Source: Clostridia bacterium
Lineage (GTDB): Bacteria; Bacillota; Clostridia; UMGS1883; UMGS1540
NCBI GenBank assembly: GCA_045535515.1
Contig: JAZSLT010000010.1
Span: 1,916-65,915 of the forward strand
Direction of reading: 5' to 3'
Length of the DNA: 64,000 nt
In this document: piece after piece, positions 3,868 through 63,648 of the stretch
Position numbering within the stretch: the stretch's first letter is position 1
Layout of the letters: each line of letters starts with the position of its first letter
Notes under the pieces: model-generated
What the model saw: the letters and a program-made list of their open reading frames with translations, nothing else
Databases searched by the model: none
What the model was told of the DNA's origin: nothing
Program-made: the position numbers and the translations under genes

Positions 3868-4012
3868 GACGCATCGATATAAATCTCTTACGAGATTTTC
3901 GATATATCCTAAAGGATTCGATATGTGCCAAGGCACTCGATATGTTTCCTTCGGAAACGAGCAAGGCGAGTATGTCGCACACAACACGCATCGATATAAA
4001 TCTCTTGCGCGG
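3843..4012 (+). repeat. CGATAT box/hairpin array (family A, locus 1) with an internal ~40-bp direct repeat
   Basis: TCGATAT boxes start at 3874, 3899, 3918 and 3937 (spacing 25, 19, 19 bp). Each is followed by a different short hairpin: aaatctc/gagattt, atcc/ggat, gtgcc/ggcac, gtttcc/ggaaac. The segment 3843-3883 is repeated at 3972-4012. Confidence 0.7.
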
Positions 4013-11383: not shown

Positions 11384-11560
11384 AGTGATATTCCAACTTC
11401 GTTGGCGTGATATTTTTGATAAATCAAAAGTGATATTGAAACCTTATGGTTTCAGTGATATTATATTTGCCATTAAACTGTGCGAAGCAAAATATCACTC
11501 GGCGAAGCCGAATATAACTGCGAAGCAATATAACTTGCCAAAGGCAAATATAACTGAAAA
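11384..11560 (+). repeat. GTGATATT / AATATAACT box-hairpin array (family B)
   Basis: Four GTGATATT boxes, each followed by a different small hairpin (ccaac/gttgg, tttgat/tcaaaa, gaaacc/ggtttc). Then an inverted AATATCAC. Then three AATATAACT boxes separated by tcggc/gccga, gc/gc and tgcc/ggca hairpins. Confidence 0.65.
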
Positions 11561-14742: not shown

Positions 14743-15585
14743 CTAAATTCCAAAAATTTCCATAATTCGTTCAAATTCGGCTGCCGTCCCGTAGGAAATT
14801 TCAATTTTCCCTTTTTTGGCGTTTCCGCAAAGGCGCACACGCGAGCCGATTTTTTTAGAGAACCTTTCCTCCATATCCCGGATTTCTGCGGTATATTTTA
14901 CCGGTGCCTTCTTCGCCGGCCGGCCAAGACTTACCAGCCGCTCCAGCTCTCTGACGGAAAGGCCTTCGCGGATGACTCTCTCGGCAAGAGAAAGCTGGTC
15001 GGCATCAGCCGCCGCAAGGAGTGTTCTGGCATGGCCCGCCGATATTTTTCCTTCGCGCACCAGTTTTCTGACCGGCTCCTTCAGCGCCAGAAGGCGCAGG
15101 GCGTTGGCAACGGCGCTTCGGCTTTTTCCGATTTTTTCGCTGATTTCCTCCTGCGTCATGCCGTATAAATCCATAAGGTTACGAAAGCCCTCTGCCTCTT
15201 CCATGGGATTTAAATTTTCCCGCTGCAAGTTTTCAATCAGAGCAATTTCGCTGGCCGTTTTCTCATCGTATTCCCGGATAATGGCCGGAATTTCCTTTAA
15301 ATCTGCCATTCGGGCCGCACGCCACCGCCGCTCGCCGGCAATAATCGTGTAAAAGCCGTTTTCGTTCTTAGAAACAACGATAGGCTGAATAATGCCATGC
15401 TCCCGCACGGAGGCTGCCAGCTCCTCCAGCTGCTCGGCGGAAAAGCTTTTTCGCGGCTGGTCCTTATTCGGCTCTACTTCGGCAATCCGCAGATATACGA
15501 TTTTATTGCTATCCGGTTCGTTTTGCGGGAAATCTGCAGAAGTGAACAGGGCATCCAGTCCTTTTCCAAGTCCACCCTTAGCCAT
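14743..15585 (-). CDS. parB: chromosome partitioning protein ParB/Spo0J
   Basis: 280 aa with ParB box motifs (GERRWRAA) and a central HTH. It lies downstream of parA in the same operon. Confidence 0.9.
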   Translation of the reverse strand: MAKGGLGKGLDALFTSADFPQNEPDSNKIVYLRIAEVEPNKDQPRKSFSAEQLEELAASVREHGIIQPIVVSKNENGFYTIIAGERRWRAARMADLKEIPAIIREYDEKTASEIALIENLQRENLNPMEEAEGFRNLMDLYGMTQEEISEKIGKSRSAVANALRLLALKEPVRKLVREGKISAGHARTLLAAADADQLSLAERVIREGLSVRELERLVSLGRPAKKAPVKYTAEIRDMEERFSKKIGSRVRLCGNAKKGKIEISYGTAAEFERIMEIFGI

Positions 15586-15609: not shown

Positions 15610-16383
15610 TTATTCTGTTTCCATTGGTCGGTCCAGTACCTCCTGCGCCAAGTCCATATAGCTTTCCGCGCCGCGGCTGTGGGGGTCATACACGATGACA
15701 GGTTGTCCAAAGCCGGGAGCCTCGGAAAGGCGGACATTACGCGGGATAATCGTTTTGTATACCTTTTGCGGGAAAAACTTTTTCACCTCGTCCACCACCT
15801 GAATTGCGAGATTGGTGCGCGAGGAAAACATGGTCATCAAAACGCCTTCTATTTCAATCTGCGGATTTAAAAGCTTTTTCACTCTTTTTATCGTGGCCGT
15901 AAGCTGGCTGAGGCCTTCCAGCGCATAGTATTCGCATTGGATGGGCATGAGAACGGAGCCGCAAGCCGTCAGCGCATTTAAGGTAATGAGACTGAGTGAC
16001 GGCGGACAATCAATAAAAATAAAATCGTAATCCGCCTGTATGTCGGAAAGGGCCTCTTTCAGGCGATATTCACGCGCCATGAGCCCCACAAGCTCAATTT
16101 CCGCACCGGAAAGCGCCAGGCTGGAGGGACAAACGAAAAGATTTCGAAACTCCGTTTTTACAATAACCTCTTCCATTTTTTTTGCTTCAATGAGGACATC
16201 GTATACGGAATGTTCTATTGTCCGGTTGTCAATGCCGAGTCCGCTCGTTGCATTTCCCTGCGGGTCCATATCCACAAGAAGAACTTTTTGGCCTTTTTTT
16301 GCCAGACAAGCCGCTAAATTCACAGAGGTCGTGGTTTTTCCCACGCCGCCCTTCTGGTTGGCTATTGCTATTATTCTTGCCAT
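15610..16383 (-). CDS. parA: chromosome partitioning ATPase ParA/Soj
   Basis: Deviant Walker A (KGGVGKTT) and 257 aa. Confidence 0.9.
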
Positions 16384-16477: not shown

Positions 16478-16493
16478 TGTTTCACGTGAAACA
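16478..16493. promoter_or_regulatory. parS site 2 (perfect TGTTTCACGTGAAACA palindrome)
   Basis: Second exact copy, 38 bp centre to centre from site 1. Confidence 0.85.
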
Positions 16494-16646: not shown

Positions 16647-16679
16647 AGGATGGAGTGGATATAGAAGGAAAGGTCTTGT

Positions 16680-16800
16680 TTTCCACACTTATTTTCGTAC
16701 TTTTTCACTTTTCCACATACTTATCCACATAAAACAAGCTGATTTTGCCGCGATTTGCCTGTTTTCCACATCTTCCGGTTTTTTTGTTTTCCACTTTTCC
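16680..16800 (+). promoter_or_regulatory. oriC part 1: cluster of DnaA boxes upstream of dnaA
   Basis: A perfect TTATCCACA at 16721-16729. Four more TT(T)TCCAC(A/T) variants (ttccacact, ttttccacata, gttttccacatc, ttttccact) in the same orientation. Confidence 0.7.
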
Positions 16801-16853
16801 GCCGGTAAAAAGGCTTGCATATTATCACTTTTTGGGAAAGGATTTTTCTATAC

Positions 16854-18161
16854 ATGGATGGCGAACTTTTAAATATCTGGGAACATGCTTTGCCTCTGAT
16901 TGAGGAAGAGGTTACGCCGGTCGGCTACAAGACCTGGATTTTAGCAATTTCCCCACTTTCTATTGAAAACAATTTTTTAAATGTTTCTGTACCAAATGAG
17001 GTAAACAAAAACATGGTGGACCACCGCTACAAGGAGCTGATTCAAAATGCCGTGTACGAGGTTTCCGGTCACCGCTGTACGCTCGTGGTACATATCGGCG
17101 AGGCACCCGAGGAAAAGAAGGAAGAGAAGGCCGCCCGAAATCTCGGTATGCCGTTAAATCCGAAGTATACCTTTGACAGCTTCGTCGTCGGCGGCTCCAA
17201 CCGTTTTGCGCACGCGGCCTCGCTTGCCGTTGCCGAAACGCCGGCCAGGACCTATAATCCCTTGTTTTTGTACGGCGGCGTAGGGCTTGGCAAAACGCAT
17301 CTTCTGCATGCTATCGGCAACTTTATCATTGAAAATAACCACGATATGCAGGTAATGTACATTTCGGCCGAAACCTTTACCAATGAGCTGATTAACTCCA
17401 TCAAGGATTCGAGAAACGATGAATTCCGCGAGAAATACCGCAGCGTGGATGTTCTGATGGTGGACGATATTCAGTTTATCGCCGGCAAAAAGGTAACGGA
17501 AGAGGAATTTTTCCATACCTTTAATACGCTTTACGATGCCAATAAACAGATTATCATCACGAGTGACCGGCCGCCCAAAGAGCTGAAAACGCTGGAGGAC
17601 AGGCTTCGTTCGCGCTTTGAATGGGGCATTATCGGCGATTTGTATGCGCCTGACTATGAAACGAGAGTAGCCATTCTGCGCAAAAAAGCACAGCTCGAAA
17701 AAATTGAAATTCCCGATGAAATTCTGGAGCTGATTGCCGAGAAAATTACCTCCAATATCCGCGAGCTGGAGGGTGTTTTCAACCGCGTACTCGCGTATCG
17801 CGGCCTTATAAACAGCGAAATTACGATAGATGTGGCGCTGGATGCGATGAAAAGCTACCACGCAACAGGCGGGCCGAATGTAAGCCCCGAGGAAATTGTG
17901 GATGCCTGTGCCAAATTCTATCATGTAAAAAAAGAAGATATTATGGGCAACAAACGCACAAAGAATATTGCCCGCGCAAGGCAGGTTGTGATGTATATGA
18001 TGCGCGAGATTTTAGGGTATTCGCACCTTAAAATTGCGAAATACCTGGATAAGCACCACACAACCGTTATGTATGGCATAAATGAAGTGGAATCCGCCAT
18101 GCAGGAGGACCATGCCTTCCATATGGAAATATCCACACTCAAGAAGGATATCACAGAATAG
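16854..18161 (+). CDS. dnaA: chromosomal replication initiator protein DnaA
   Basis: AAA+ Walker A (GGVGLGKTHL), a domain IV DNA-binding region and conserved oriC synteny. Start placed at MDGELLNIWEH (16854) rather than the upstream ATG of the ORF track. Confidence 0.9.
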   Translation: MDGELLNIWEHALPLIEEEVTPVGYKTWILAISPLSIENNFLNVSVPNEVNKNMVDHRYKELIQNAVYEVSGHRCTLVVHIGEAPEEKKEEKAARNLGMPLNPKYTFDSFVVGGSNRFAHAASLAVAETPARTYNPLFLYGGVGLGKTHLLHAIGNFIIENNHDMQVMYISAETFTNELINSIKDSRNDEFREKYRSVDVLMVDDIQFIAGKKVTEEEFFHTFNTLYDANKQIIITSDRPPKELKTLEDRLRSRFEWGIIGDLYAPDYETRVAILRKKAQLEKIEIPDEILELIAEKITSNIRELEGVFNRVLAYRGLINSEITIDVALDAMKSYHATGGPNVSPEEIVDACAKFYHVKKEDIMGNKRTKNIARARQVVMYMMREILGYSHLKIAKYLDKHHTTVMYGINEVESAMQEDHAFHMEISTLKKDITE

Positions 18162-18262
18162 TTTTCCACTATAAAAAGTGCCTGTTTTCGGCGAAAAAAG
18201 GACTTTTCCGTCCTTTCCACATGCTCTACTATAAATACTATTTTATTATTATATATATTAGC
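18160..18262 (+). promoter_or_regulatory. oriC part 2: DnaA boxes plus an AT-rich DNA unwinding element in the dnaA-dnaN spacer
   Basis: ttttccact and tcctttccacatg boxes, then a 35-bp stretch made almost entirely of A and T (tataaatactattttattattatatatatta). Confidence 0.6.
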
Positions 18263-18310
18263 GCGTTTTCCTTTTCAGAGGAGCGCCCTTTAAAAAACGG
18301 AGGACAAATC

Positions 18311-19426
18311 ATGATTTTTTCGTGTGAAAAGCAATCTCTTTCCGATGCCGTTTCTATTGTTATGAAGGCGGCCGCAAATAAGGCATCCATGCCGATACTC
18401 GAGGGTATCCTTTTAAGTACGGATGCGGACAGCCTTGTGCTGACGGCTAATAATTTAGAGCTTGCCATCGAGTGCCGCATACCGGCTGAAATCCGCGAAG
18501 ACGGCGCGATTGTAACGGGCGATGTCCGTGTTTTCTCGGAGGTTATAAGGAAGCTTCCGTCCGGCATGGCGGATATTACCGTTTCGGAGAATTTTTCCAC
18601 TACCGTACAAAACGGAAAATCCGTTTATAACATTCTCGGTATGAATCCCGAGGAGTTTCCGGATATTCCTTCCGTCCTTGAGGATTCCGGCATTACTGTC
18701 GGCGCAGAAACCTTAAAAAAGGCCATTCGCCAGACGGCGTATGCCGCCGCGATTAAAAATGAAAGACCTTCCCTCACGGGTGTTTACTTTGAAATTGAGC
18801 CGAAGGCGTTTCACATGGTTGCGCTCGATGGTTTTCGCATGGCCATTCATAACGAGCCGCTTTCGGAAAATCCGGACGAGGAGCCGTACAGCTTTATCGT
18901 GCCGGCGAGAACGCTTTTGGAGCTTTCCCGCATTTTGCCGGATGGTGATGCGCCTGTTTTCATTACAGCCAGCACAAAGCATGTGCAGTTTACCTTCGGG
19001 CAGATTAAGGTCGTGTCGCGCCTTTTGTCGGGCGAATATTTCCAGTATAAGCAGATTATTCCGGGTGATTTTAAAATTCAGACGCGCCTTTCGGTCCGCG
19101 ATGTGCTGACATGTGTAGAGCGCGCGGACCCCATTGTATCGACCGATGTGTATAAAAATCCGGTGATTATGACGCTTTCCAATGATACGCTTTCGATAGA
19201 CTGCGTCACAGCCGTCGGCAAAGCGCATGATGTGATTGAAATTCCCGATTGCGGCAGCGAGATCCGCATTGGCTTTAACCAGCGGTATTTGCACGACGCC
19301 CTGTCGGTATGTGACTGCGAAGAAATTATCATGGAATTTAACGGCAGCCGCAACCCCTGCATTATAAAGCCGGCCGAGGGGGATGAATTTTTGTTTATGG
19401 TCTTGCCGGTGCGTATCAGCGAATAA
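18311..19426 (+). CDS. dnaN: DNA polymerase III beta sliding clamp
   Basis: MIFSCEKQSL start preceded by GGAGG, three clamp domains and ~372 aa. The upstream in-frame ATG of the ORF track lies inside the AT-rich DUE and was rejected. Confidence 0.9.
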   Translation: MIFSCEKQSLSDAVSIVMKAAANKASMPILEGILLSTDADSLVLTANNLELAIECRIPAEIREDGAIVTGDVRVFSEVIRKLPSGMADITVSENFSTTVQNGKSVYNILGMNPEEFPDIPSVLEDSGITVGAETLKKAIRQTAYAAAIKNERPSLTGVYFEIEPKAFHMVALDGFRMAIHNEPLSENPDEEPYSFIVPARTLLELSRILPDGDAPVFITASTKHVQFTFGQIKVVSRLLSGEYFQYKQIIPGDFKIQTRLSVRDVLTCVERADPIVSTDVYKNPVIMTLSNDTLSIDCVTAVGKAHDVIEIPDCGSEIRIGFNQRYLHDALSVCDCEEIIMEFNGSRNPCIIKPAEGDEFLFMVLPVRISE

Positions 19427-28254: not shown

Positions 28255-28325
28255 CGGCGATATAAATTCTTCTCGGAATTTGTGATATGCTGCAAGTAAC
28301 TCGATATGTCCCTTCGGGACGAGAA
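28255..28325 (+). repeat. CGATAT box/hairpin array (family A, locus 2) in the 5' leader of pgeF
   Basis: ggCGATATaaattc..gaattt, gtGATATgctgc, then CTCGATATGTCCC-TTC-GGGACGAG immediately before the RBS AAAGGAG and the ATG at 28338. Confidence 0.65.
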
Positions 28326-28337
28326 AAAGGAGAAACC

Positions 28338-29129
28338 ATGTTTCCTAAAATCCGCGCGGCGATTCCCTATTTTGCCGCTTTTACGGAATATCCCTTTTGC
28401 ACCGCCGGCATTACAACGCGGGAAGGCGGCGTATCAAAGGGGCATTTATCCGCGTTAAATCTCGGCACGCGCTGCGGGGACGAGGAGGCGGCGCTTTCGG
28501 AAAATTACCGCCGCCTCGCAGAGGCTTTTGGCATCTCGTACGAGAAAATCGTGTCCACAAATCAAGAGCATACCGACCGTGTTTTGCGCGTAGGGACGGA
28601 GGACGCCGGGCGCGGCATTGTGCGGCCGCGGTTTTCGGAAGGGGTGGACGGCCTTGTGACAAACGAGCCACATCTGCCGCTTCTTGCTTATTTTGCCGAT
28701 TGCGTGCCGGTGCTTTTTTGTGACCCGAGGGCGCGCGCGGTGGGCGTTTGCCATAGCGGCTGGCGCGGCACCGTAGGAAAAATCGCCGCCAAAACCGCCG
28801 CCCTTATGCAAACGGAATTCGGGAGCAAGAGCGCGGACATCCATGCGGTAATCGGGCCGCATATCGGCGCGTGCTGCTTTGCGGTGGATGCGCCGGTGCA
28901 CGAGGAATTTGTAAAGGCCTTCCCCGAAAATGCCGGATTTTCCGAAAAACGGGGCGAAAAATACTACATCAATTTGTCCGCCGCGGTGGAAAAAACCTTG
29001 CAGGACGAGGGGCTTACCAAGATAGAAAACATGAACATCTGTACCGCATGCCACAGCGAAACCTTCTTTTCGCACCGCAAAACGGGCGGGAAGCGCGGGT
29101 GCTTTGCAGCGGTTATTGCCATACGATAA
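28338..29129 (+). CDS. pgeF: peptidoglycan editing factor PgeF / YfiH-family purine nucleoside phosphorylase-laccase domain protein
   Basis: The conserved HSGWRG motif and CxxH region of the YfiH/DUF152 family. ~263 aa. Confidence 0.75.
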   Translation: MFPKIRAAIPYFAAFTEYPFCTAGITTREGGVSKGHLSALNLGTRCGDEEAALSENYRRLAEAFGISYEKIVSTNQEHTDRVLRVGTEDAGRGIVRPRFSEGVDGLVTNEPHLPLLAYFADCVPVLFCDPRARAVGVCHSGWRGTVGKIAAKTAALMQTEFGSKSADIHAVIGPHIGACCFAVDAPVHEEFVKAFPENAGFSEKRGEKYYINLSAAVEKTLQDEGLTKIENMNICTACHSETFFSHRKTGGKRGCFAAVIAIR

Positions 29130-30660: not shown

Positions 30661-30760
30661 TGCGATATATTTGCCTTGCAAATGCGATATACAGGCTACG
30701 CCTGCTCGATATGCCTCGCGGCTCGATATGTTGCCTTGCGGCAACGAGAATTTTACTTAT
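30661..30760 (+). repeat. CGATAT box/hairpin array (family A, locus 3)
   Basis: gtGCGATAT-atttgc/gcaaat, GCGATAT-caggc/gcctg, CGATAT-gcc..ggc, and CTCGATATG-ttgcc-ttgc-ggcaa-CGAG as the terminal module. Confidence 0.65.
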
Positions 30761-42754: not shown

Positions 42755-44131
42755 CTACCCTTCTACCTTCGGCAGAGAGGAGAGCGCCTTTTTAATTTCT
42801 TCGTCGGTGGGAATGAAGTCCGACATTTCGCCGTCGTTAAACTTCCCGTAGGCCACCATATCGAAATAGCCCGTTCCCGTAAGACCGAACACAATCGTTT
42901 TTTCCTCGCCCGTTTCCTTGCAGCGGAGCGCCTCGTCAATCGCCACGCGAATCGCATGGCTGCTCTCCGGCGCCGGCAAAATGCCTTCCACCCTGGCAAA
43001 CTGCTGTGCCGCCTCAAAAACATCCGTCTGGCAGACCGAGGTGGCTTCCATCAGCCCGTCCGCATACAGCTGGGAAAGCGTGCTGTTCATGCCGTGATAG
43101 CGAAGACCGCCCGAATGGCTGGACGACGGGATAAAACCGCTGCCTAAGGTATACATTTTAGAGAGCGGACAAACCATGCCCGTATCGCAATAATCATACG
43201 CATAGGTGCCGCGCGTAAGCGTCGGGCAGGAGGCAGGCTCTACGGCAATAATGCGATAATCCGCCTCGCCGCGCAGCATTTCGCCCACAAACGGGGAAAT
43301 TAAGCCGCCGAGATTGGAGCCGCCGCCGGCACAGCCGATGATAACATCCGGCTTTATGCCGTATTTGTCAAGCGCCGCCTTCGTTTCCAGACCAATGACC
43401 GACTGGTGGAGCATAACCTGATTTAACACGCTGCCGAGCACATAGCGGTACCCTTCTTTTTTGGAAGCCGCCTCTACCGCCTCGCTGATGGCACAGCCGA
43501 GGCTACCCGTGGTGCCGGGGTGCGCCGCTAAAATCCGCTTGCCCACTTCCGTTTCCATAGAGGGCGAGGGGGTGACGGATGCGCCGTAGGTCCGCATAAC
43601 CTCGCGGCGGAACGGCTTTTGCTCGTAGGAAACCTTTACCATATATACCTTGCAGTCAAGGCCAAAGTACGCACACGCCATCGAAAGCGCCGTGCCCCAT
43701 TGGCCGGCCCCCGTTTCGGTGGTTACGCCGCGAAGCCCCTGCTGTTTGGCATAATAGGCCTGCGCGATGGCGGAGTTGAGCTTATGACTGCCGCTTGTGT
43801 TGTTGCCCTCAAACTTATAATAGATTTTGGCGGGCGTTTCCAGCTTTTTTTCGAGACAATACGCACGCACGAGGGGTGAGGGGCGATACATTTTGTAAAA
43901 ATCGCGGATTTCCTCGGGAATTTCAAAATACGCGGTGGTATCGTCCAGCTCCTGGGCGATAAGCTCGTCGCAAAAGGTGGAGGAAAGGTCCGCCCCCGTC
44001 ATCACCTGATGCGTTTCGGGGTGGAGAAGCGGTGCCGGCTTGTTTTTCATATCGGCGCGGACATTGTACCACGCGCGCGGCATCTCCTTCTCCTCGAGAT
44101 AAATTTTATAAGGGATTTTTTCGTTTGCCAT
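42755..44131 (-). CDS. TrpB-like pyridoxal-phosphate-dependent enzyme (tryptophan synthase beta-like, TrpB2 type)
   Basis: The PLP lysine motif (SGSHKLN) and the TrpB-like fold. Start moved to MANEKIPYK (44131) with a GGAGAA RBS. Confidence 0.7.
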   Translation of the reverse strand: MANEKIPYKIYLEEKEMPRAWYNVRADMKNKPAPLLHPETHQVMTGADLSSTFCDELIAQELDDTTAYFEIPEEIRDFYKMYRPSPLVRAYCLEKKLETPAKIYYKFEGNNTSGSHKLNSAIAQAYYAKQQGLRGVTTETGAGQWGTALSMACAYFGLDCKVYMVKVSYEQKPFRREVMRTYGASVTPSPSMETEVGKRILAAHPGTTGSLGCAISEAVEAASKKEGYRYVLGSVLNQVMLHQSVIGLETKAALDKYGIKPDVIIGCAGGGSNLGGLISPFVGEMLRGEADYRIIAVEPASCPTLTRGTYAYDYCDTGMVCPLSKMYTLGSGFIPSSSHSGGLRYHGMNSTLSQLYADGLMEATSVCQTDVFEAAQQFARVEGILPAPESSHAIRVAIDEALRCKETGEEKTIVFGLTGTGYFDMVAYGKFNDGEMSDFIPTDEEIKKALSSLPKVEG

Positions 44132-44158
44132 AAGGGTTCTCCTTTCTTTGGCGGGACA

Positions 44159-44442
44159 AAAACAAAAACTCCTGTCCCACGCCATTTTGCTGGGACAGGA
44201 GAATAAAATCCTGCGGTGCCACCCGGCTTGGCGCTTTTGCGCCCACTCTACGCATACTACCATATGCCGGCCTTTTGTAACGGAGAGCCAAACTCCGGCG
44301 CCCATACTCCAAAACTGTTTCTGTTTGCCCTCGAAGGTCCATTCGGCTTTATGTTTTTCACCGCAATCCCACCGCCTGCGGCTCTCTTTTGAAAAAGGGA
44401 TAAAGCGTACTTACTCCTTCTCAACGGTTTACCTAAGTATAA
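44159..44442 (-). promoter_or_regulatory. T-box riboswitch leader (probable tRNA-Trp specifier) with an intrinsic terminator, controlling the TrpB-like gene
   Basis: Minus-strand promoter TTGACA-17-TATACT (44465 to 44437). T-box sequence GGGTGGCACCGCAGG (44225-44211). Terminator ctcctgtccca..tgggacaggag + U-run (44202-44159), which shares bases with an alternative antiterminator. A candidate UGG specifier sits at 44342-44340. Confidence 0.6.
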
Positions 44443-45865: not shown

Positions 45866-45889
45866 GAATTTAATTGCAAAGCAATTAAA

Positions 45890-46190
45890 TTCAGCGATAT
45901 AAATTCCTGACGGAATTTGCGATATGTACTTCGTACGCGATATATCTTCGATGCGATATGTCCCTTCGGGACGAGAAATAGGAATTTATATCATATCGCA
46001 ACGGAATGAAATGGAGTTATATCGCATTTGAACAGAGTGAAAATATATCGCACGAACGAAGTGAGTATATCGCCAAAAGTCGGCATCTAAATTGTGCACG
46101 AATTCAGCGATATAAATTCCTGACGGAATTTGCGATATGTACTTCGTACGCGATATATCTTCGATGCGATATGTCCCTTCGGGACGGAAA
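45890..46190 (+). repeat. CGATAT box/hairpin array (family A, locus 4): unit, inverted boxes, unit
   Basis: A near-perfect 88-bp direct repeat (45890-45975 and 46098-46186). Each copy has four GCGATAT boxes separated by aattcc/ggaatt, gtac/gtac and gtccc/gggac hairpins. The central 45976-46097 carries four inverted boxes (ATATCGC). The array ends in CGATATGTCCC-TTC-GGGACGG + RBS + ATG at 46203. Confidence 0.7.
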
Positions 46191-46202
46191 AAGGAGAAGA
46201 AA

Positions 46203-46940
46203 ATGGGAAAAGAGCGCATTTTTTGGATAGATGAATGGCGGGGCGTAGCCCTCCTTGCCATGATACTACATCATATTGCGTTTAACCTGACGGATTTTCT
46301 GGCGCTGCCGTTGCCGCTTGTCCGGGCGGTGCTTTCGAGCCGCGCATTTGACGCGGTGCAGACGGTGTTTATTGCTATTTTCTTTTGCATATCCGGCATT
46401 TGCTGCCGTTTCTCCAAAAGGCCTTATCTTCGCGCGGGGCGCGTCCTTCTCGGGGCCGCGGCCGTGACGGCGGTGACATGGGCGCTTTTTCCGGACGAGG
46501 CGATATGGTTTGGTGTTTTGCATTGTCTTGGTGCGTGCATGCTTTTGTATGCGGTTTTCGGGCGGTGGCTCCGGAAAATACCGCCGCTTTTGGGAATTGC
46601 CGGAGCTATTCTTCTTTTTGTTATTACCTGCCGCGTGCCAGACGGATTTTTGCTTTTTCTCCCCTTGCCGGCCGGTTGGTATTGCGGCGGTCTTCTTACG
46701 ATTTTCGGCTTTTCCGCGCCGCTTTTTACCTCGCTCGACTATGTGCCGCTTCTGCCGCACCTGTTTCTGTTTTTGATAGGCGTGTTTATCGGCCGTCTGC
46801 CGCTGAAAAATAGTCGGCAGCACAGCCGTTTTCTGGCGTTTTTGGGGCGGCACAGCCTTTCGGTCTATCTTTTGCATCAGCCGCTTTTGTTCGGGGTGTT
46901 TTTGTGTTTCGAAAAAATCCTAGGAGGGATGAAACTATGA
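46203..46940 (+). CDS. DUF1624 / acyltransferase-3-like membrane protein
   Basis: Polytopic membrane protein with the N-terminal WIDEWRGVALLAMILHH motif typical of DUF1624. Confidence 0.55.
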   Translation: MGKERIFWIDEWRGVALLAMILHHIAFNLTDFLALPLPLVRAVLSSRAFDAVQTVFIAIFFCISGICCRFSKRPYLRAGRVLLGAAAVTAVTWALFPDEAIWFGVLHCLGACMLLYAVFGRWLRKIPPLLGIAGAILLFVITCRVPDGFLLFLPLPAGWYCGGLLTIFGFSAPLFTSLDYVPLLPHLFLFLIGVFIGRLPLKNSRQHSRFLAFLGRHSLSVYLLHQPLLFGVFLCFEKILGGMKL

Positions 46941-55606: not shown

Positions 55607-56389
55607 ATGAAAATATTGGTTTTTGCGGACCTTCACTACTATAGCGGCACCGAGCCGAAATTTGACACGAGTAAAAAGCTTGTGCAGTATGCCGACGCGA
55701 TGCTGCAGGCGCTTATTAAGAAGGCAGAGGAAGAAAAGGTCGATTTTGTTGTCAATCTGGGCGACAGTATTCAGGATAACAACGATAAAGAGGGCGACAA
55801 GGAGAGCCTTCGCCTTGTTTTCGAGAGACAAAAGGCGTTTCCCTGCCCGTGCTATACGGTACTCGGTAATCACGATATGAAAATGATGGACAGTAAAAAG
55901 GAGGTCGAGGCCATTTTAGGGTATGAAACGACCTATAGCTTTGACAGGGGCGGGTATCATTTCGTGTTTCTGACAACGGATGTCGATACGGAAAAGGACT
56001 TTTTGCGCGGCGGCATACACAGAACTTGGGTGCTCCCCGAAAAGACGCTCCGCTGGCTCGAAATCGATTTAGAGAAAAACACGCTGCCGTGTATCCTTTT
56101 TACCCACTTTGCCTTAGCGGAGGACGAAAGCATTACGGACGAATGTCTGTTCCTCAAAAACAGAAACGAGGTGAAGGCCGTTTTGGCCCGCCATGACAAT
56201 ATAAAGGCCGCCATCTGCGGCCACCAGCATATAGGAAGGGTACATAAAGAGGGCGGTATTCCCTATTATCTCATCGCATCTCCCACGGCGGCGGAGGAGG
56301 ACGCGCCGGGTGTGCCGTGCGGCGCGTATGCGATTTTGGAAACCGAGGGGGAAGAAGTTACGGTTTTGGAGAAACGCATCCGGCTGTAA
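55607..56389 (+). CDS. calcineurin-like metallophosphoesterase
   Basis: Motifs (ADLH, GDSIQD, GNHD and GHQH) in order. 260 aa. Confidence 0.7.
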   Translation: MKILVFADLHYYSGTEPKFDTSKKLVQYADAMLQALIKKAEEEKVDFVVNLGDSIQDNNDKEGDKESLRLVFERQKAFPCPCYTVLGNHDMKMMDSKKEVEAILGYETTYSFDRGGYHFVFLTTDVDTEKDFLRGGIHRTWVLPEKTLRWLEIDLEKNTLPCILFTHFALAEDESITDECLFLKNRNEVKAVLARHDNIKAAICGHQHIGRVHKEGGIPYYLIASPTAAEEDAPGVPCGAYAILETEGEEVTVLEKRIRL

Positions 56390-56390: not shown

Positions 56391-56480
56391 GGAGCTAAAT
56401 TGACCTTCGGTCAGCTAAATTGCCTGCGGCAGCTAAATTCGCCTTGCGGCGAGCTGAATGTGCTTCGCACGCGAAATTAT
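56391..56480 (+). repeat. AGCTAAATT box/hairpin array (family C)
   Basis: AGCTAAATT-gacc-ttc-ggtc, AGCTAAATT-gcc-tgc-ggc, AGCTAAATT-cgcc-ttgc-ggcg, AGCTGAATG-tgc-ttc-gca, CGCGAAATT. It starts 2 nt after the phosphoesterase stop codon. Confidence 0.65.
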
Positions 56481-56490: not shown

Positions 56491-56530
56491 AAAAAAGGAT
56501 GGAATGCTTTTGCATTCCATCCTTTTTTGC
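56491..56530. terminator. bidirectional terminator (aaaaaaggatggaatgc-ttt-tgcattccatcctttttt)
   Basis: A 14-bp stem flanked by A6 and T6 runs, between convergent genes. Confidence 0.65.
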
Positions 56531-57353: not shown

Positions 57354-59000
57354 ATGCAAAACAAAAAAAGAATACGCCAGAGCCTGATGAGCGAGGAGAA
57401 AAGGGAGCTGGCAAAAAAGTACCGGGATTTTTATCTTCGTGCATGGCAGGACAAGGCGCGCAGGGGACTGGGAGAACGCTTTGCGCTTTACGAAGCCTAC
57501 TGGGAGGGCGATGTAAACCTGCCCGAGTCGGAGAATGACCCGGGAAGCAGCACGAACATTGTCCACGCCAATGTGGAGGGGCAGGTGTCGCTGCTTTTGG
57601 AGCAGAGCATCGGGATACTGCCCGTACCCGTAACGCCTGACGATGCGCCCTTTGCGAAAACCGTGCAAAAGGTGCTGGAGTTTGTCAAGGAAAAAAACCG
57701 CCTGACGCGAAAGCTCGACCTGCACGAGCGGCGCAGAGAAAAATACGGAACCGGAATTTTTCGCGTGTCGTTTGACCCGGCGGCGCTCGATGGGGCGGGG
57801 CTGCCGGTTATTGAGGCGTGCAGTCCGCAGAACATCTTTGTAGACCCGGGTATTACCGATGTTTACCGCACCGAGGAGGCGGCCTTCATTATTGAAACGG
57901 TTTGCAAAACGGTACATTGGGCGAGAAGACAGTACGGCGATGCGGTGGCAGATGCCATTGTGCCGGGGTACAGACCGCAGTTTGAAGGAGAAGAAGGCGG
58001 CGAGGACACCTATTTGCACATGCTGGTCTGGACGAAGGAAGGGGGTAAGCTTCGTCTGGTGGAAATGACAGGCTGCGGCCTGATTTTATCCGACAGCTTT
58101 GAAGAGGGCGAAACCGATTTTTATCCGGGCGGGCGGTATCCTTACTTTTTCACCCCCCTTTACTACCGCGAAGGCTCCATCTGGGGCAAAGGGGATGTGG
58201 AGCTGCTGATTCCGCTGCAGGACCTTATCAACGACCTCGACGACCAAATCCGCATCAATGCACGCCTTACAGGCAATCCGCAGCGCCTGATTGAAACGGG
58301 CAGCGGCATTGATTTAGATGCTATGACAAACGAGGCCGGCCTGAACATTCCCACCACGAGTGTTTCGGCCGTGCGGAATCTGGAGGCACCGCCGCTTCCG
58401 GCATACATTCTCCAGCGGCGCGACACCGCCCTTCGCTACGAGAGCCAGCGCGTCACCCGTTTTTCCGACCAGATGACGGGTGCCAAGCAGGCAGGCGTAA
58501 ACACCGCTTCCGAGGCGATGGTGCTCCAGCAGGGCGGGCAGATGTCCATCCAGCACAAAAAGCTTCTCCTCCAGGAAACGCTTTCCGAGGTCTTTGCCTA
58601 CTGTCTCGAGATGATTCGGGCGTACTGGACCGAGGAGGTGGCCGTTCGCCTGACGGACAAGCCGACGGAATTTATTTTCTTCCGCGGCAGCGACCTTCGT
58701 GCCATAAGCCGAAGAGGCGGCGGCACGAAGGAGGCGGCATTTGACCTTGTGGTGACGGTGGGCGCAGGCCTTCCCACCAACAAGGCGGCGGCGTACCAGA
58801 TGATGAGCGACCTGTACGCCAAGGGGCTTGTAACGCCCCACGAGGTGCGCGCGTTTTTGGCGGACTATTTTGGTCTGCCGCTGGGAGAGGCGCCGGCTGA
58901 AGTGGATGAAGGCGGAAAACAGGCGGAAAAAGGCGCCAAAATCGAACATGCGGCGGCAGAAGGACTTTCGGCAGAAGGCGCGCCGCGCCGCAAGCGGTAA
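57354..59000 (+). CDS. putative phage portal protein
   Basis: 548-aa acidic protein that opens a scaffold + capsid module. The size, composition and position fit a portal. The assignment is by context, not by a recognised motif. Confidence 0.45.
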   Translation: MQNKKRIRQSLMSEEKRELAKKYRDFYLRAWQDKARRGLGERFALYEAYWEGDVNLPESENDPGSSTNIVHANVEGQVSLLLEQSIGILPVPVTPDDAPFAKTVQKVLEFVKEKNRLTRKLDLHERRREKYGTGIFRVSFDPAALDGAGLPVIEACSPQNIFVDPGITDVYRTEEAAFIIETVCKTVHWARRQYGDAVADAIVPGYRPQFEGEEGGEDTYLHMLVWTKEGGKLRLVEMTGCGLILSDSFEEGETDFYPGGRYPYFFTPLYYREGSIWGKGDVELLIPLQDLINDLDDQIRINARLTGNPQRLIETGSGIDLDAMTNEAGLNIPTTSVSAVRNLEAPPLPAYILQRRDTALRYESQRVTRFSDQMTGAKQAGVNTASEAMVLQQGGQMSIQHKKLLLQETLSEVFAYCLEMIRAYWTEEVAVRLTDKPTEFIFFRGSDLRAISRRGGGTKEAAFDLVVTVGAGLPTNKAAAYQMMSDLYAKGLVTPHEVRAFLADYFGLPLGEAPAEVDEGGKQAEKGAKIEHAAAEGLSAEGAPRRKR

Positions 59001-59037
59001 CCTTTTTACCGGCGGACGAGAAGGAAGGAGAAAAGGG

Positions 59038-59271
59038 ATGCAGATTTATTTACCCGAGGCCGTTGCGCGGAGAATGCGGCGGCATGCGTATTTACAGAGC
59101 ATTGACATCGAAAAGCTGCGCGACAACCCCGTTTGTCCGCGCTGCGAGAGGGCGGCGCTTCGCGACAAGGGCTGGTCGGAGGAGAAAATCGGCCATTGTC
59201 CCTATTGCGGACACCGCGGCCCCATGCCGGTAACGGTGGGAGAATATGCAGCGAAGGCGCTGTATAAGTAA
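59038..59271 (+). CDS. small zinc-ribbon protein (CPRC...CPYCGH)
   Basis: 77 aa with two CxxC pairs. Good RBS (GGAAGGAG). Confidence 0.4.
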   Translation: MQIYLPEAVARRMRRHAYLQSIDIEKLRDNPVCPRCERAALRDKGWSEEKIGHCPYCGHRGPMPVTVGEYAAKALYK

Positions 59272-59289
59272 AGAAAACAGGAGGAAATT

Positions 59290-60042
59290 ATGGCAAAAAC
59301 AAAAAAGCGTCCTAAGCCGCAGGACAAAAAAACGGCGGCAGGCGTCGGCACAGCCTCGAAAATCGCGCAGGCGGAGATGGCGGAGGAGCTTCTCTTCACG
59401 CTTTCCGAGGATGCACAAGAGGCAGAGGCCGAAACAGAAACGGCAAAAGAGGTGGAAGATACCGCGAAGGAAGGCGCAAAAGCGGAAGAGGCCGAGGACA
59501 AGGAAAAGGCGGAAATGCTGGCCATATTAAAACGGCTCATGGACGATATGGGCGTCAGCGGTATGGCGGCGCTCGTCGAGAAGATTGACGAGGCCGAGAA
59601 GAGAAAGCTGGTCCGCTCCTATGGTCTTGACGAGGCGGCGGCCGCTCTCTTTTTAGAGCAGCAGGAGAAGGTGCGGGCGCTGCGCGAGGCCAAGGAGAAG
59701 GCCGTGCGCGAGGCGATGTACGCCGAGATGCGCAAAAACCCCTTCTATGCCGATGTGGACAGCCGAAGAGAAGCGCTCGAAGCCTTTATTCTCCGCACAG
59801 GCACCACGCCCCGCGAGGCGTACGGCGCCCTGTTTGCCGAGGAGAGAATGGAGAAAATGGTACGCGAGATGGAAGAAAAGAAGAGCGCGGCCGAGAAAAA
59901 GGCCAAGCATATTCCGGCGCTTTCCGGTGGCGATGCGCCGGAAAATGAAGGCTACAAAAAGCTTTCGGAGGCTGAAAAGTGGGCGGCGGAGCGTGCGGGT
60001 ATGACGCCGCAGGAATACGCCCGCTACAAGTATGCGTATTAA
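59290..60042 (+). CDS. putative phage scaffolding protein (Ala/Glu/Lys-rich coiled coil)
   Basis: 250 aa, highly charged and helical, immediately upstream of the capsid gene. Typical scaffold position and composition. Confidence 0.5.
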   Translation: MAKTKKRPKPQDKKTAAGVGTASKIAQAEMAEELLFTLSEDAQEAEAETETAKEVEDTAKEGAKAEEAEDKEKAEMLAILKRLMDDMGVSGMAALVEKIDEAEKRKLVRSYGLDEAAAALFLEQQEKVRALREAKEKAVREAMYAEMRKNPFYADVDSRREALEAFILRTGTTPREAYGALFAEERMEKMVREMEEKKSAAEKKAKHIPALSGGDAPENEGYKKLSEAEKWAAERAGMTPQEYARYKYAY

Positions 60043-60058
60043 AAAATAAGAAAGGAAA

Positions 60059-60985
60059 ATGAAAATGGCAACAAAACTTGAAAGAAGTAATTTTGCGGCG
60101 CTTTTGACGCCGGTACACAGAAAGGTGTTTTTTGACACCTACAACAAGAAGAAAAAGCAGTATACCGAAATTTTCAAGGTAGACGAAATGCACGCGAAGG
60201 AAGAATCCTTCCCGCATCTCGGCGCTTTCGGCAAGTGGGCGGAAAACGCGGAAGGAAATGATTTTAATGTGGCGGACATCGCACAGGGCGATATTGCCAC
60301 CTTCACCGCCCGCCGCTTTGACAAGGCGTATGAGGTGACCTGGGAGCTTGTACAGGATGACCTTTACAATGTGATGAAGGGAAGTGGCCGAGGCGGCAGC
60401 GCCTCCAAGCTCGGCAGCGGACTCCAGGCGACCGAGGAATCGCAGGCCGCCCGCGTGATTTTGGACGGCTTTACCGAAAACGGCTACGATGGCGTACCGC
60501 TGTTTTCGGCAAATCATCCGCTGGTAAACGGCACGGAAAGCTGTTCTAACCTCGTGGAAGGTGCGCTGACGGACGAGAAGCTCAAGGAAGCGCTGACCAG
60601 AATGCGCCTTCAGAAGGACGAGGCCGGCGTGCTTGTTGCCGCGCATGCGGACAAGCTGGTTGTACACCCCGATTGGGAATTTACGGCCCGCGCTCTCGTT
60701 GGCTCCACCTTACAGGCAGGCACAGCCAACAACGATAAGAACACCATTCCGCACCTTGACATTGTGGTATGGGATTATCTGTATGACGGCACGGATACAA
60801 ATAAGCCGTGGTTTGTACAAGACGGCAGCATGGACAACCTGATGTTCCTGTGGCGCGAAAAGCCCATCTTTGACAGCGAAAAGATTGACAACAAGATGGA
60901 CTATCGCTTCTACGGATACTGCCGCTTTGACACAGGCTATGTGGATTGGCGCGGTCTTGTCGGCTCTACGGGCAAAAGCGAATAA
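60059..60985 (+). CDS. putative phage major capsid protein
   Basis: 308 aa, following the scaffold gene with a strong RBS. Assigned by position and size only. Confidence 0.45.
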   Translation: MKMATKLERSNFAALLTPVHRKVFFDTYNKKKKQYTEIFKVDEMHAKEESFPHLGAFGKWAENAEGNDFNVADIAQGDIATFTARRFDKAYEVTWELVQDDLYNVMKGSGRGGSASKLGSGLQATEESQAARVILDGFTENGYDGVPLFSANHPLVNGTESCSNLVEGALTDEKLKEALTRMRLQKDEAGVLVAAHADKLVVHPDWEFTARALVGSTLQAGTANNDKNTIPHLDIVVWDYLYDGTDTNKPWFVQDGSMDNLMFLWREKPIFDSEKIDNKMDYRFYGYCRFDTGYVDWRGLVGSTGKSE

Positions 60986-61008
60986 GGAAAAGGGAAGGAA
61001 GTGAGAAT

Positions 61009-62604
61009 ATGCGTGTATCCGAAATTTTAAACGAGGGTGTAGAGCAGTTTTTGTCAATCGCACCTTCCACAGTAGCGCACATGGAGGACACGGATAATCC
61101 CCATGCGGTGACGAAAAAGACGATAGGGCTTGAAAATGTTACCAACGACCTGCAGGCCAAGGATGCCGACTTCCGTTCCCACAAAGAGGCGGCAGAGCTT
61201 GACCATCCGGACGGCAGCGTGACAACAGACAAGCTGGCCGCGGCGGCGGTGAAAACAGAGAAGCTCGCAAGCGGCGCGGTGACGGCGGAAAAAATAGCCG
61301 AGGGCGCCGTGGGCGGTGATGCACTCCGGGAGGGGTGCATCCGGCCGGAGCACCTCGCCGGCAACCTGAAAACAACCCTTTCCGAGAAGGTGGACACAGT
61401 GAAGGGGATGGGCCTTTCGCAAAACAGCTTTACCGATGCGGAAAAAGCGAAGCTGGGTGCTATAAAGGTGGTGGACGAGGAGACGCACACGCTCGACACG
61501 GCGACGCTGGTGCTGAAGGGGCAGGAGCTTGTGCTGCACAAGGAAGGACATCGGTATACCTACGAAGGAGAAACGGTGCTGGACAGGAATGTCACCAGTT
61601 TTATTTCGGCAGACACCGATGAGGTGAACGGCAATATGATGGTGGCCTATCGGGACAGAGACAATATTTATACCGTTTCCTGGCTTTATGGGGGAGACAA
61701 GAAATGGTACACATTCAAGCTGCCGGAAAACACCTCCTGTCACACCATGTATCAGGGCACCCTTTATTATGTCGTTTTAGAAGGAAATGTGGCGAAGGTA
61801 GAAAGACGGACCCATATCAATGCGGTGCACGATTGGGGAAGCTATACACTGGCAAGAACGGGAACGATAGAGGTGAAGGGTGTTTTTGCAAAGGACGATT
61901 CCGTTCGCATTGTCTATTGGGAACATGGGACAAGCTATACAACCTTGTGCGTGGAGAAGTTCAAAAAGAGCACAGGAGAGCAGGAATGGATTTACACCAA
62001 AAATATGACAAAAAAAGCAAAATTTACGCCGCCTCCTGCCGATGCCGACACGATTTACGAAAGCCGCGTGCGCATGGTGACACATGATGCATCGGACGAC
62101 CTGTATGTGGCAATGGTGCTTCCCTCGAGCCAGAAATACGCCGTTGTGCGTATCGACATAAACGGCGAAGTAAAGGGCGAATACTTCCCAATCGAAAGCA
62201 ATCATGACGGCTATATTTTTCAGGACCTTGCTGTTGTGGACAAAAAGATTTATGCCTTCGCCCGCTCACGGCTGATGATGGCCGATATGGAAACGGGCGC
62301 AACGGTTATGGCGTGGCGGCACAACAGCCAATGCCTCCGAGGCATCAATGTTGACCCCGAAGGGGAAATCTACCTGATGATGGAAAGCACGGCCGGCGTC
62401 ACAAAATTGTATCGCTTTAAAGGAAACCGGGAAATGGAATGTAATATCAATGAGGCGGCAAACACCTATCCGCAGAAAATAGACGGACGATATCTGATAG
62501 CGCGATATCTCGATGGCAAGATGTATTTATTCCATATACCGGAAGGAACAGAGAAGCTTATGATGACCACCTACACGGCCGATACGGTGTACAGCATATT
62601 GTAA
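61009..62604 (+). CDS. phage structural protein with N-terminal tail-fiber-type tandem repeats and a C-terminal beta-propeller-like domain
   Basis: Repeats VTTDKLAAAAV / KTEKLASGAV / TAEKIAEGAV (phage fibre repeat type). The C-terminal 300 aa has recurring aromatic/beta-strand blocks. Start at MRVSEIL (61009). Confidence 0.45.
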   Translation: MRVSEILNEGVEQFLSIAPSTVAHMEDTDNPHAVTKKTIGLENVTNDLQAKDADFRSHKEAAELDHPDGSVTTDKLAAAAVKTEKLASGAVTAEKIAEGAVGGDALREGCIRPEHLAGNLKTTLSEKVDTVKGMGLSQNSFTDAEKAKLGAIKVVDEETHTLDTATLVLKGQELVLHKEGHRYTYEGETVLDRNVTSFISADTDEVNGNMMVAYRDRDNIYTVSWLYGGDKKWYTFKLPENTSCHTMYQGTLYYVVLEGNVAKVERRTHINAVHDWGSYTLARTGTIEVKGVFAKDDSVRIVYWEHGTSYTTLCVEKFKKSTGEQEWIYTKNMTKKAKFTPPPADADTIYESRVRMVTHDASDDLYVAMVLPSSQKYAVVRIDINGEVKGEYFPIESNHDGYIFQDLAVVDKKIYAFARSRLMMADMETGATVMAWRHNSQCLRGINVDPEGEIYLMMESTAGVTKLYRFKGNREMECNINEAANTYPQKIDGRYLIARYLDGKMYLFHIPEGTEKLMMTTYTADTVYSIL

Positions 62605-62617
62605 CGGAGGCGGAAGG

Positions 62618-62842
62618 ATGAATGAGATAACGATAGCCGGCCTTTCCTTTTTGGGAACCTGTGTGGGAACGGTGGGCGGCATACTGACGGCGAGCCGTCT
62701 GACAAACTATCGCCTCGAGCAGCTGGAAAAAAAGGTGGCCAAGCATAACAATCTGGTGGAACGCATGGCCTGTGCGGAGGAGAGCGTGAAAAGCGCACAC
62801 CGCCGCATTGACGAAATCAAGGAGGAGGTACTGCATGGATAA
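62618..62842 (+). CDS. BhlA/UviB/XhlA-family holin-like protein
   Basis: 74 aa: one N-terminal TM helix followed by a coiled coil. First gene of an XhlA-XhlB-amidase-type lysis cassette. Confidence 0.55.
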   Translation: MNEITIAGLSFLGTCVGTVGGILTASRLTNYRLEQLEKKVAKHNNLVERMACAEESVKSAHRRIDEIKEEVLHG

Positions 62843-63014
62843 ACGATGGAAAAGCCCGATTTTATGGGCATCGTGTCTTGCGCTCTTCGCCTTTGTGATG
62901 AAAACCTGGGTGGGATGGGAAATTCCGCAGTTTGATACATTTGCGGAGCTTCTTTTGGCGGCGCTTGCGGCGCTGGGCGTTATCAACAATCCCACCGACA
63001 GGGAGCATTTTTAA
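62835..63014 (+). CDS. phage holin (SPP1/XhlB-type, two TM helices)
   Basis: 59 aa with two TM helices and a charged C-terminus. ATGGATAA overlap with the upstream gene and a GGAGGAGG RBS. Confidence 0.55.
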   Translation: MDKRWKSPILWASCLALFAFVMKTWVGWEIPQFDTFAELLLAALAALGVINNPTDREHF

Positions 63015-63033
63015 AAAGCAGGAGGGGAACGAG

Positions 63034-63648
63034 ATGCAAATAGCCTACAACAAAACCGAGAGAAAGGAAAAGCCGCGCTACATCGTGGTACACACGACGG
63101 GAAACACCCGAAAGGGTGCGGATGCGGCGGCGCACTTTTCGTACTGGAACAGCAAAAATGTAGGGCAGAGCGCCGATTTTGTCGTAGACGAAAACGGGGC
63201 GCTCCAGATAAATGATTACACAAAATATTATACATGGCATTGCGGGGACGGAAAGGGGCGCTACGGCATAACCAACCAGAACTCTATCGGGGTGGAAATC
63301 TGCGTAAACGAGGATGGCGACTTTTCGCGCGCGCTCGAGCATACCGTTGCCCTTTTGCGAAGGCTGAAGGGGGAAACGGGAATAGAAAATGTGGTGCGGC
63401 ATTACGACGCCTCCCGTAAAATGTGCCCCGCGGCCCTGGCTGAAAACGATTGGGAAAAGTGGAAGGAGCTGAAAAGAAAAGTGGCAGAGGTAGAGGAACT
63501 GACCAGCGTAAACGACATCGTTTGGGAGCTGGGAGAGAGAGGCGTTATTACAGATGCCGCCCTCTGGCTTCGAAAGCTGGAAGAGGATGAAAATGCGTAC
63601 TGGCTGGCGCGAAAGTGCCTGCGCTATATGAGGGGGAGATGTGTGTGA
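63034..63648 (+). CDS. N-acetylmuramoyl-L-alanine amidase (amidase_2/PGRP domain) endolysin
   Basis: YIVVHTTGN, HCGDG and ...ICVNEDGD blocks typical of amidase_2 Zn amidases. Follows two holin genes. Confidence 0.75.
   Translation: MQIAYNKTERKEKPRYIVVHTTGNTRKGADAAAHFSYWNSKNVGQSADFVVDENGALQINDYTKYYTWHCGDGKGRYGITNQNSIGVEICVNEDGDFSRALEHTVALLRRLKGETGIENVVRHYDASRKMCPAALAENDWEKWKELKRKVAEVEELTSVNDIVWELGERGVITDAALWLRKLEEDENAYWLARKCLRYMRGRCV

Follow-up and report, generated by a model that had tools for sequence, protein, structure and literature searches.

A box-and-hairpin array in the 3' UTR of a clostridial metallophosphoesterase gene and its relation to the Gut-1 RNA motif

In a 64-kb stretch of clostridial DNA (hereafter the window, meaning the whole stretch that was analysed), a metallophosphoesterase gene is followed directly by short repeated boxes that alternate with mini-hairpins. 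This locus raises the question of what kind of element the repeat is, whether it stands alone and how it could act at the end of a gene. The gene carries a Metallophos domain (Pfam, E 1.3e-19). On direct reading, the boxes of the repeat, termed array C, alternate with four perfect mini-hairpins. The features are as follows, with boxes and hairpins assigned by sequence reading.

55607..56389, + strand: metallophosphoesterase gene (ORF list, Pfam), stop codon TAA at 56387-56389
56393-56479, + strand: array C as a whole, AGCTAAATT three times, variant AGCTGAATG and remnant GCGAAATTA
56393-56401, + strand: box 1, AGCTAAATT
56402-56412, + strand: hairpin 1, GACC-UUC-GGUC, with a fifth pair from the flanking U and A
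56413-56421, + strand: box 2, AGCTAAATT
56422-56430, + strand: hairpin 2, GCC-UGC-GGC
56431-56439, + strand: box 3, AGCTAAATT
56440-56451, + strand: hairpin 3, CGCC-UUGC-GGCG
56452-56460, + strand: box 4, the variant AGCTGAATG
56460-56470, + strand: hairpin 4, GUGC-UUC-GCAC
56471-56479, + strand: GCGAAATTA, putative remnant of a conserved "turn" module, from comparison with full elements
56491-56528, either strand: bidirectional intrinsic terminator, A6-GGATGGAATGC-TTTT-GCATTCCATCC-T6, with an 11-bp stem and a UUUU loop
56539..57012, - strand: convergent 157-aa ORF without Pfam or PHROG match

An earlier note on this DNA had described the alternation, placed it in the 3' UTR and pointed to a bidirectional terminator behind it, and all three descriptions stand. 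The array lies between the metallophosphoesterase stop codon and the terminator. The alternation was seen by direct reading, by Tandem Repeats Finder (56393-56459, period 20, 3.4 copies, score 75) and against shuffle controls. All four spacers are hairpins flush with the boxes, with a product of per-spacer shuffle probabilities of 1.4e-5, and a strict box-plus-hairpin detector returned 0 arrays in three shuffles of 846 kb. Detection by boxes alone was swamped by AT-rich chance repeats and ordinary tandem repeats. The terminator is visible by eye and in RNAfold; a consensus scanner made no call there, and our guess is that the A and T runs were absorbed into the stem. Two details of the note needed correction. 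The array begins 3 nt after the stop codon rather than 2 nt, and its last base lies 11 nt ahead of the terminator. The loops, given as UUCG-type tetraloops, are UUC, UGC, UUGC and UUC at maximal pairing, i.e., three triloops and one tetraloop.

On both strands of the 64-kb window, the exact 9-mer AGCTAAATT has no copies beyond the three in array C. The G variant of box 4 also terminates other AGCTAAAT arrays (L060, L068 and L115), and hairpin 4 lies within 16 nt, AATGTGCTTCGCACGC, that recur unchanged in the full element of contig L002. The array C hairpins were rejected as intrinsic terminators in their own right: each is followed by AGCUAAAUU without a U tract, and the terminator proper is that at 56491-56528. 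A coding repeat was likewise rejected on reading the sequence, since the period of 18-20 nt is no multiple of three. About 0.9 kb downstream of array C begins a compact phage-like cluster (57354-63648), perhaps a small prophage remnant or an island.

57354..59000: portal protein
60059..60985: major head/protease-like protein
60946..62604: tail-fibre-like protein, with a 30-nt tandem repeat at 61219-61282
62932..63648: amidase/endolysin

Repeat scans and reading located nine box-hairpin modules at six loci in the 64-kb window. The siblings of array C are listed below with their bit scores against the Rfam Gut-1 model and against R1, a covariance model described further on.

3874..3970, + strand: array D, TCGATAT four times with four hairpins, R1 12.2 bits; begins 6 nt past the stop of a tRNA-U5-methyltransferase-like gene
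11385..11461, + strand: array A+, GTGATAT four times, converging on A-; Gut-1 26.1 bits, R1 16 bits
11487..11556, - strand: array A-, GTTATAT three times plus GTGATAT, Gut-1 51.7 bits; directly behind the terminator of tRNA-Met and tRNA-Glu
28257..28320, + strand: array F, intercistronic, GCGATAT, GTGATAT and TCGATAT, Gut-1 30.2 bits; its last hairpin and GAGAAAAAGGAGAA form the ribosome-binding site of the next gene (ATG at 28338)
30662..30750, + strand: array E, GCGATAT twice and TCGATAT twice, R1 17.8 bits; begins 3 nt past the stop of a ComM-like Mg-chelatase gene
45894..46185, + strand: element B, within the 5' leader of an acyltransferase gene (ATG at 46203), with four forward, four reverse and four forward boxes; Gut-1 33.4/25.6 bits, R1 27.8/27.1 bits

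In element B, four GCGATAT boxes (45894-45972) are followed by four reverse ATATCGC boxes (45993-46073) and an exact second forward array (46107-46185). Its four reverse boxes have purine-rich spacers that do not form hairpins. The region 45883-46188 is partially duplicated in tandem (period about 213 nt, about 1.4 copies), and its two forward arrays agree in every base over about 90 nt. The flanks of array D (3846-4006) hold a direct repeat of 37 of 40 nt that spans the gene end and box 1 (tatgtcgcacaNaaNacgcatcgatataaatctctt), which suggests a partial tandem duplication of about 115 nt. Arrays F (28308-28340) and B2 (46173-46205) end in the same module, GTCCCTTCGGGAC, followed by G(A/G)(G/A)AAAAAGGAGAA and ATG, and their 3' ends thereby provide the Shine-Dalgarno sequence of the downstream gene. 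The "turn" of other copies, AAAAGGCGAA, is similar to this end module.

The earlier note had recognized an architecture common to array C and other arrays of the window, which the siblings bear out. It had also treated array C as a separate family and its box as one of three unrelated sequences, and had argued from this that no single binding site was at work. Here, the comparison led elsewhere. Array C is one of nine window modules of a single family, in which an AU-rich box of 7-9 nt, (A)G-Y-K-A-W-A-U(U), and a GC-rich mini-hairpin of 3-7 bp behind it make up the unit. Most hairpins close with a C-G pair and have a U..C loop. Across an alignment of 28 arrays, the boxes all conform to G-[C/T]-[T/G]-A-[A/T]-A-T, with G1 conserved at 96-100%, A4 at 94-100%, A6 at 96-100% and T7 at 100%. 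The supposedly unrelated boxes are variants of G-Y-K-A-W-A-U and are mixed inside single arrays, namely in window arrays E (GCGATAT and TCGATAT), F and A-, and on L121, where GCTAAAT, GCGATAT and GTGATAT stand in one array. With one consensus and mixed box types, a single recognition factor of degenerate specificity could still be at work, contrary to that argument.

Rfam already lists this architecture, as the Gut-1 RNA motif (RF01706; Weinberg et al. 2010, PMC2864571), a point that the earlier note missed. The RF01706 consensus has GUGAAAU linkers alternating with three hairpins, and since 2010 Gut-1 has been listed as a human-gut-only RNA without known function or host. We found no Gut-1 literature beyond Weinberg et al. 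2010. In the original alignment in the supplement of that paper (PMC2864571), four forward boxes follow a leading hairpin or terminator, and a turn (GGCGAAUAUA...) leads on to four reverse-complement boxes with hairpins of their own.

At Rfam gathering thresholds, the sole matches in the whole window were two tRNAs and, at array A-, Gut-1. Array A- scored 51.7 bits where the gathering score is 50 and is a bona fide Gut-1 match. A T-box leader match at 44188-44433 on the - strand, upstream of the minus-strand ORF 42755..44305, scored 92.5 bits, slightly under its gathering score of 93. Array C scored 23.9 bits against Gut-1, below the gathering score of 50, and Gut-1 is nonetheless its best Rfam match, with E 0.008-0.013 in a local search. 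The window-wide E-value is 2.8 when corrected for 4227 families and about 7e-4 for Gut-1 alone (our own division). The cmscan alignment covers Gut-1 model positions 1-77 including all three hairpins, and array C has at least three short hairpins joined by a GCUAAAU linker that fits G-Y-K-A-W-A-U. Window-wide at E<=5, Gut-1 accounted for 6 of 18 Rfam matches (A-, B1, F, A+, B2 and C), and all six coincide with arrays in box-sense orientation.

Eleven arrays went into R1, namely window array A- and ten from other sources, and array C was left out. R1 was given a hand-made structure because MAFFT whole-array alignments shift register. With filters off, array C scored 54.2 bits over model positions 1-87 of 87 (rough E 6e-13), and the eight best matches in the window were the eight arrays, all on the sense strand. 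That array C and its siblings form a scattered modular RNA element of uncultured gut Clostridia related to Gut-1 is well supported, as is the reading of Rfam's Gut-1 as the GUGAAAU/GUGAUAU-box version of this element. The Rfam model takes in one box subtype only and just half of the larger element.

Structure was assessed on the 28 arrays including C, in an alignment fitted to R1, a fitting that favours the structure in the pairing and covariation figures. Paired cells reached 92.4%, compared with 60.4% in shuffles, and 0 of 500 shuffles were as high. All 15 of 15 pairs vary on both sides, and the covariation score was 0.731 versus 0.177 for shuffled alignments and <=0.089 with slid partners. 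As in Gut-1, the hairpins are thus supported by covariation in this model-fitted alignment. In the orthologous elements of L049, L068 and L115, all boxes are kept, loops have changed and flanks have diverged, with compensatory U-A to C-G swaps in two stems. Counted over 84 distinct hairpins, Watson-Crick pairs fill 411 of 427 stem positions and only 3 pairs are G.U. C-G closes the stem in 74 of the 84, and 68 of 84 loops start with U, so that the complementary strand reads C(GNA)G. C(GNA)G is a classic stable DNA mini-hairpin. Such loops would suit a DNA-level or antisense structure, and the tally of G.U against A.C for choosing the functional strand, 3 versus 4, favoured neither strand.

Array C itself folds no more stably than shuffles (z -0.44; reverse strand -1.03), and its minimum-free-energy structure lacks hairpins 2 and 4. 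This result bears on the idea of a passive barrier to 3'-to-5' exonucleases, in which REP-like hairpins do the work and box sequence is irrelevant. The position, from stop codon to terminator or intercistronic, resembles that of REP/BIME and is in its favour. However, hairpins of -1.3 to -4.9 kcal/mol are very weak, the fold z-score is -0.44, and a barrier leaves the invariant G, A, A and U of the box unexplained. We consider this explanation highly improbable.

A metagenome pattern scan followed by a filter for hairpin spacers gave nine further loci with AGCTAAAT arrays. The earlier note had leaned away from a one-off tandem duplication, and same-box arrays at nine other metagenomic loci agree with it. 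They comprise the following.

L049, L068, L115: orthologous full elements
L045, L062, L069, L100: one locus
L119, L349: four hairpins identical to those of the L100 group (L100a), in a different flank
L020, L040: expanded arrays of 7-8 units
L047, L121: further loci
L002: full element with its own TTGAAA-17-TATAAT promoter directly upstream
L060: stop codon TAA, four boxes, AGCTGA and terminator, the layout of array C

The majority of these outside AGCTAAAT arrays are full, with a leading hairpin, four forward boxes, a turn and reverse-complement boxes. In viral contigs, about five true arrays were found in 2.1 Mb of pattern matches, which indicates no phage association. The L121 element (9816-10130) is very long: it counts at least nine forward boxes, and long composite hairpins accompany some of them. 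It stands opposite a convergent mixed-type array (GTGATAT, GCTAAAT, GCGATAT), between two apparently convergent genes. On the minus strand of L349, about 640-680 nt downstream of the array, one lone AGCTAAATTC box directly adjoins the 5' end of a tRNA-Thr(UGU)-like gene, and the same is seen at the end of L119. The tRNA-Thr(UGU) was called by eye only and lies behind two strong rRNA-type promoters. The lone box of L349 prompted the idea of RNase P leader mimicry, which was dropped on reading the sequence because the stems are too short.

Full elements have GGCGAATTTA (GCGAATTTA) and then reverse boxes at the site of array C's GCGAAATTA. No reverse-complement box AATTTAGCT was found near array C within one mismatch, and none in the entire 64 kb window. 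With GCGAAATTA standing where full elements have the turn and the reverse boxes, array C is probably the truncated forward half of a larger element, judging from sequence comparison. The L002 element and array C have in common the 16-nt exact string and two further hairpins. The L002 contig also carries a metallophosphoesterase gene of 62% identity, and there is no synteny between array C and the L002 element, whose flanking proteins are unrelated.

The reverse halves bring in the possibility of an RNA-RNA zipper, in which boxes serve to pair with complementary reverse boxes. In cis, a full element would form a rod of 7-9 bp helices from which mini-hairpins branch off; in trans, forward-only arrays like C would be targets or sponges of AAUUUAGCU-box RNAs. 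Forward and reverse box types match in most full elements, AGCTAAATT pairing with AATTTAGCT in L002, L049, L068, L115 and L119. Gut-1 seeds pair GTGATAT with ATATCAC and GTGAAAT with ATTTCAC, and window element B pairs GCGATAT with ATATCGC. RNAfold gives this ladder, with -73.6 kcal/mol for L002 and -94.3 kcal/mol for L115. Reverse halves (L002 7470-7580, L068, L115 and window 45976-46095) have a common non-hairpin spacer, (UAU)CGAAYNNARUGAG(AUA), in which tandem G.A pairs could form. With this spacer motif of their own, CGAAYNNARUGAG, reverse halves differ from forward arrays on the other strand, a further point for pairing. On the other hand, the 64 kb window holds 0 AATTTAGCT boxes, the L121 halves carry non-complementary box types, and GUUAUAU of window array A- stands opposite AUAUCAC with the mismatch uncompensated. 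Inverted duplication would also yield matching box types. We regard the zipper, in cis or in trans, as unlikely.

Orthologous metallophosphoesterase genes were taken from a genome-collection scan (L001, 51%) and a protein search (L002, L003 and L005, <=64%). Such a comparison of orthologous sites had been called for by the earlier note. None of the four gene ends fetched, at 51-64% identity, is followed by the array. Right after the stop codon of the 64%-identical orthologue on L003 (3040-3105) there is a tandem repeat of AATGTTTTGTTAYAG in about 4 copies, which is not a box-hairpin array.

The empty orthologous sites fit a selfish or neutral scattered repeat, which would spread and grow by duplication and be tolerated in transcribed spacers, leaving array C as a functionless, decaying half-copy. 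Near-identical copies in different flanks (L100a versus L119/L349, with four hairpins in common, and likewise BAAZ seed sequences) fit as well, as do unit-level tandem expansion in L020 and L040 and partial tandem duplications in window element B (213-nt period) and array D (37/40 nt repeated). Array C without its reverse half, yet with a turn remnant kept, and the phage-like genes from about 0.9 kb downstream point the same way. Against this, boxes and stems are conserved with compensatory changes while flanks diverge, orientation is strictly sense, and array C has all four hairpins and three boxes in perfect form. A transposase, a target-site duplication and a terminal signature were not found. 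This explanation is a minor possibility in our view, and array C may be a dead remnant of a full element.

Orientation and placement informed the choice between RNA and DNA. Arrays are sense to the interpretable neighbour in about 13 of 13 cases. Gaps after the stop codon are 0-6 nt for arrays C, D, E and L060, and 22-73 nt, with the leading hairpin in between, in the L100 and L115 groups. Window arrays B and F and two arrays on L166 lie in 5' leaders. The window also contains a replication origin (14743-19426), with tandem DnaA boxes TTATCCACA at 16707-16731.

14743..15585, - strand: parB
15610..16383, - strand: parA
16815..18161: dnaA
18221..19426: dnaN

Array D lies left of this origin on the plus strand and is sense to a gene running head-on to replication, which indicates that its orientation tracks transcription. 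The alternative is a DNA-level element, in which boxes are protein-binding sites (iteron- or transposon-end-like) or the hairpins act in single-stranded DNA as priming or HUH-nuclease signals. It draws on the near-purely Watson-Crick stems, the C(GNA)G loops of the complementary strand (GCGAAGC three times in array A) and the four direct plus four inverted boxes, similar to multi-site transposon ends. The sense strand is also the lagging-strand template in 6 of 7 window arrays. However, box spacing of 16 to 26 bp gives no helical phasing, box types differ in one genome, the gene to which array D is sense runs head-on to replication, the arrays are always sense and start 0-6 nt past stop codons, and no recombinase is associated. 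We rate the DNA-level element as distinctly unlikely. Sense orientation and the placement of array D favour an RNA role, and the Watson-Crick-only stems keep the DNA-level reading alive.

Our preferred explanation, held with moderate confidence overall, more firmly for the identity of the element and less so for its mechanism, is that array C is a co-transcribed 3'-UTR module that shows single-stranded boxes to a trans-acting factor. The array would be transcribed as the 3' UTR of the metallophosphoesterase mRNA, from the stop codon to the terminator. Local folding of the hairpins would leave the G, A, A and U of each box single-stranded and evenly presented, and the array could then offer a platform of several binding sites. 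For this factor, the most likely candidates are RNA-binding proteins and endoribonucleases with a preference for AU-rich single strands beside stems, which in Firmicutes would mean an RNase Y-like or Hfq-like activity. Binding may set the stability of the upstream mRNA or its 3'-end processing. In full elements, the boxes may instead be masked by pairing with the downstream reverse boxes. Counted against this explanation are the below-threshold Gut-1 score, the shuffle-like fold, the weak hairpins, the Watson-Crick-only stems and the lack of a counterpart of array C downstream of four orthologues.

A wider proposal, which we consider clearly improbable, is that gut Clostridia have an unrecognized addressing system based on RNA-RNA (or RNA-protein) contacts, of which the arrays are what can be seen. 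If so, the 3' UTRs and leaders of dozens to hundreds of mRNAs would carry forward-only arrays as docking sites, onto which matching reverse-box transcripts or a dedicated box-reading protein zip, giving ladders of stacked four-way junctions, with the box subtype (GCUAAAU, GYGAUAU or GUGAAAU) as the address code. With nine modules spread over six loci in 64 kb, the window shows a Gut-1-type motif at high density and ties it to an assembled clostridial genome. An orphan motif thereby becomes a testable class, in which the box has an invariant part, G..A.AU, its variants are defined and forward-only copies occur naturally for comparison. Should there be a partner protein or RNase, this would be a widespread post-transcriptional signal in abundant, little-studied gut bacteria.

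Several known systems were compared with the arrays. A CRISPR array has repeats of 23-47 nt, spacers of 26-72 nt and a cas/leader context; with 9-nt boxes, hairpin spacers of 9-12 nt and unrelated neighbouring genes, array C was rejected as one. parS half-sites and omega-type heptads were set aside for the box variation within one genome, -10-like boxes for sigma-dependent pausing and NusG pause sites for a poor match, and pairing to the 16S rRNA 3' end because GUGAU alone would fit, all three on reading the sequence. Type III toxin-antitoxin RNAs such as ToxI are similarly tandem arrays, whose single-stranded sites contain AAAU. The ToxI units, 36 nt long and near-identical, precede a toxin gene. 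Array C was not assigned to this class, as its spacers all differ and a terminator and the convergent 157-aa ORF without family match lie downstream.

REP/BIME, pneumococcal BOX, ERIC and Correia repeats resemble the arrays in being scattered, modular and co-transcribed, at gene ends or intercistronic sites and with a variable number of modules. In REP/BIME-type repeats, hairpins are conserved and linkers vary, whereas here linkers are conserved and mini-hairpins vary. An assignment to REP/BIME, with its imperfect palindrome of about 35 nt and GTAG-type head, was rejected because the window hairpins differ within and between arrays and only boxes are shared. No RAYT or transposase link was seen for the arrays. 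The CsrB and RsmZ sponge sRNAs carry GGA motifs, and CrcZ carries A-rich motifs. These RNAs likewise present a short repeated single-stranded motif between hairpins and serve as our working analogy for mechanism; they differ in the motif and in being dedicated sRNAs, whereas the present arrays lie mostly inside mRNAs.

The closest relative is Gut-1. Conserved 7-nt linkers alternate with short covarying hairpins in both, a threshold-passing Gut-1 copy lies inside the same window, and the Gut-1 seed alignment has the same leading hairpin, turn and reverse boxes as the full elements. On contigs L100 and L069, a Gut-1 seed locus and a AGCTAAAT array lie about 1 kb apart. The two differ in their box, GUGAAAU or GUGAUAU in Gut-1 and GCUAAAU in array C, and at 23.9 and 17.7 bits, respectively, array C and L002 fall below the Gut-1 gathering score of 50. 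Array C is forward-only, in a 3' UTR and flush with a stop codon, whereas Rfam types Gut-1 as a stand-alone sRNA and models three hairpins only. By the Rfam threshold, array C was not filed as a Gut-1 member. Its architecture is known from Gut-1, and four features appear new, namely the GCUAAAU subtype that Rfam's model misses, the forward-only form located in a 3' UTR, the larger full element and the high density within one genome.
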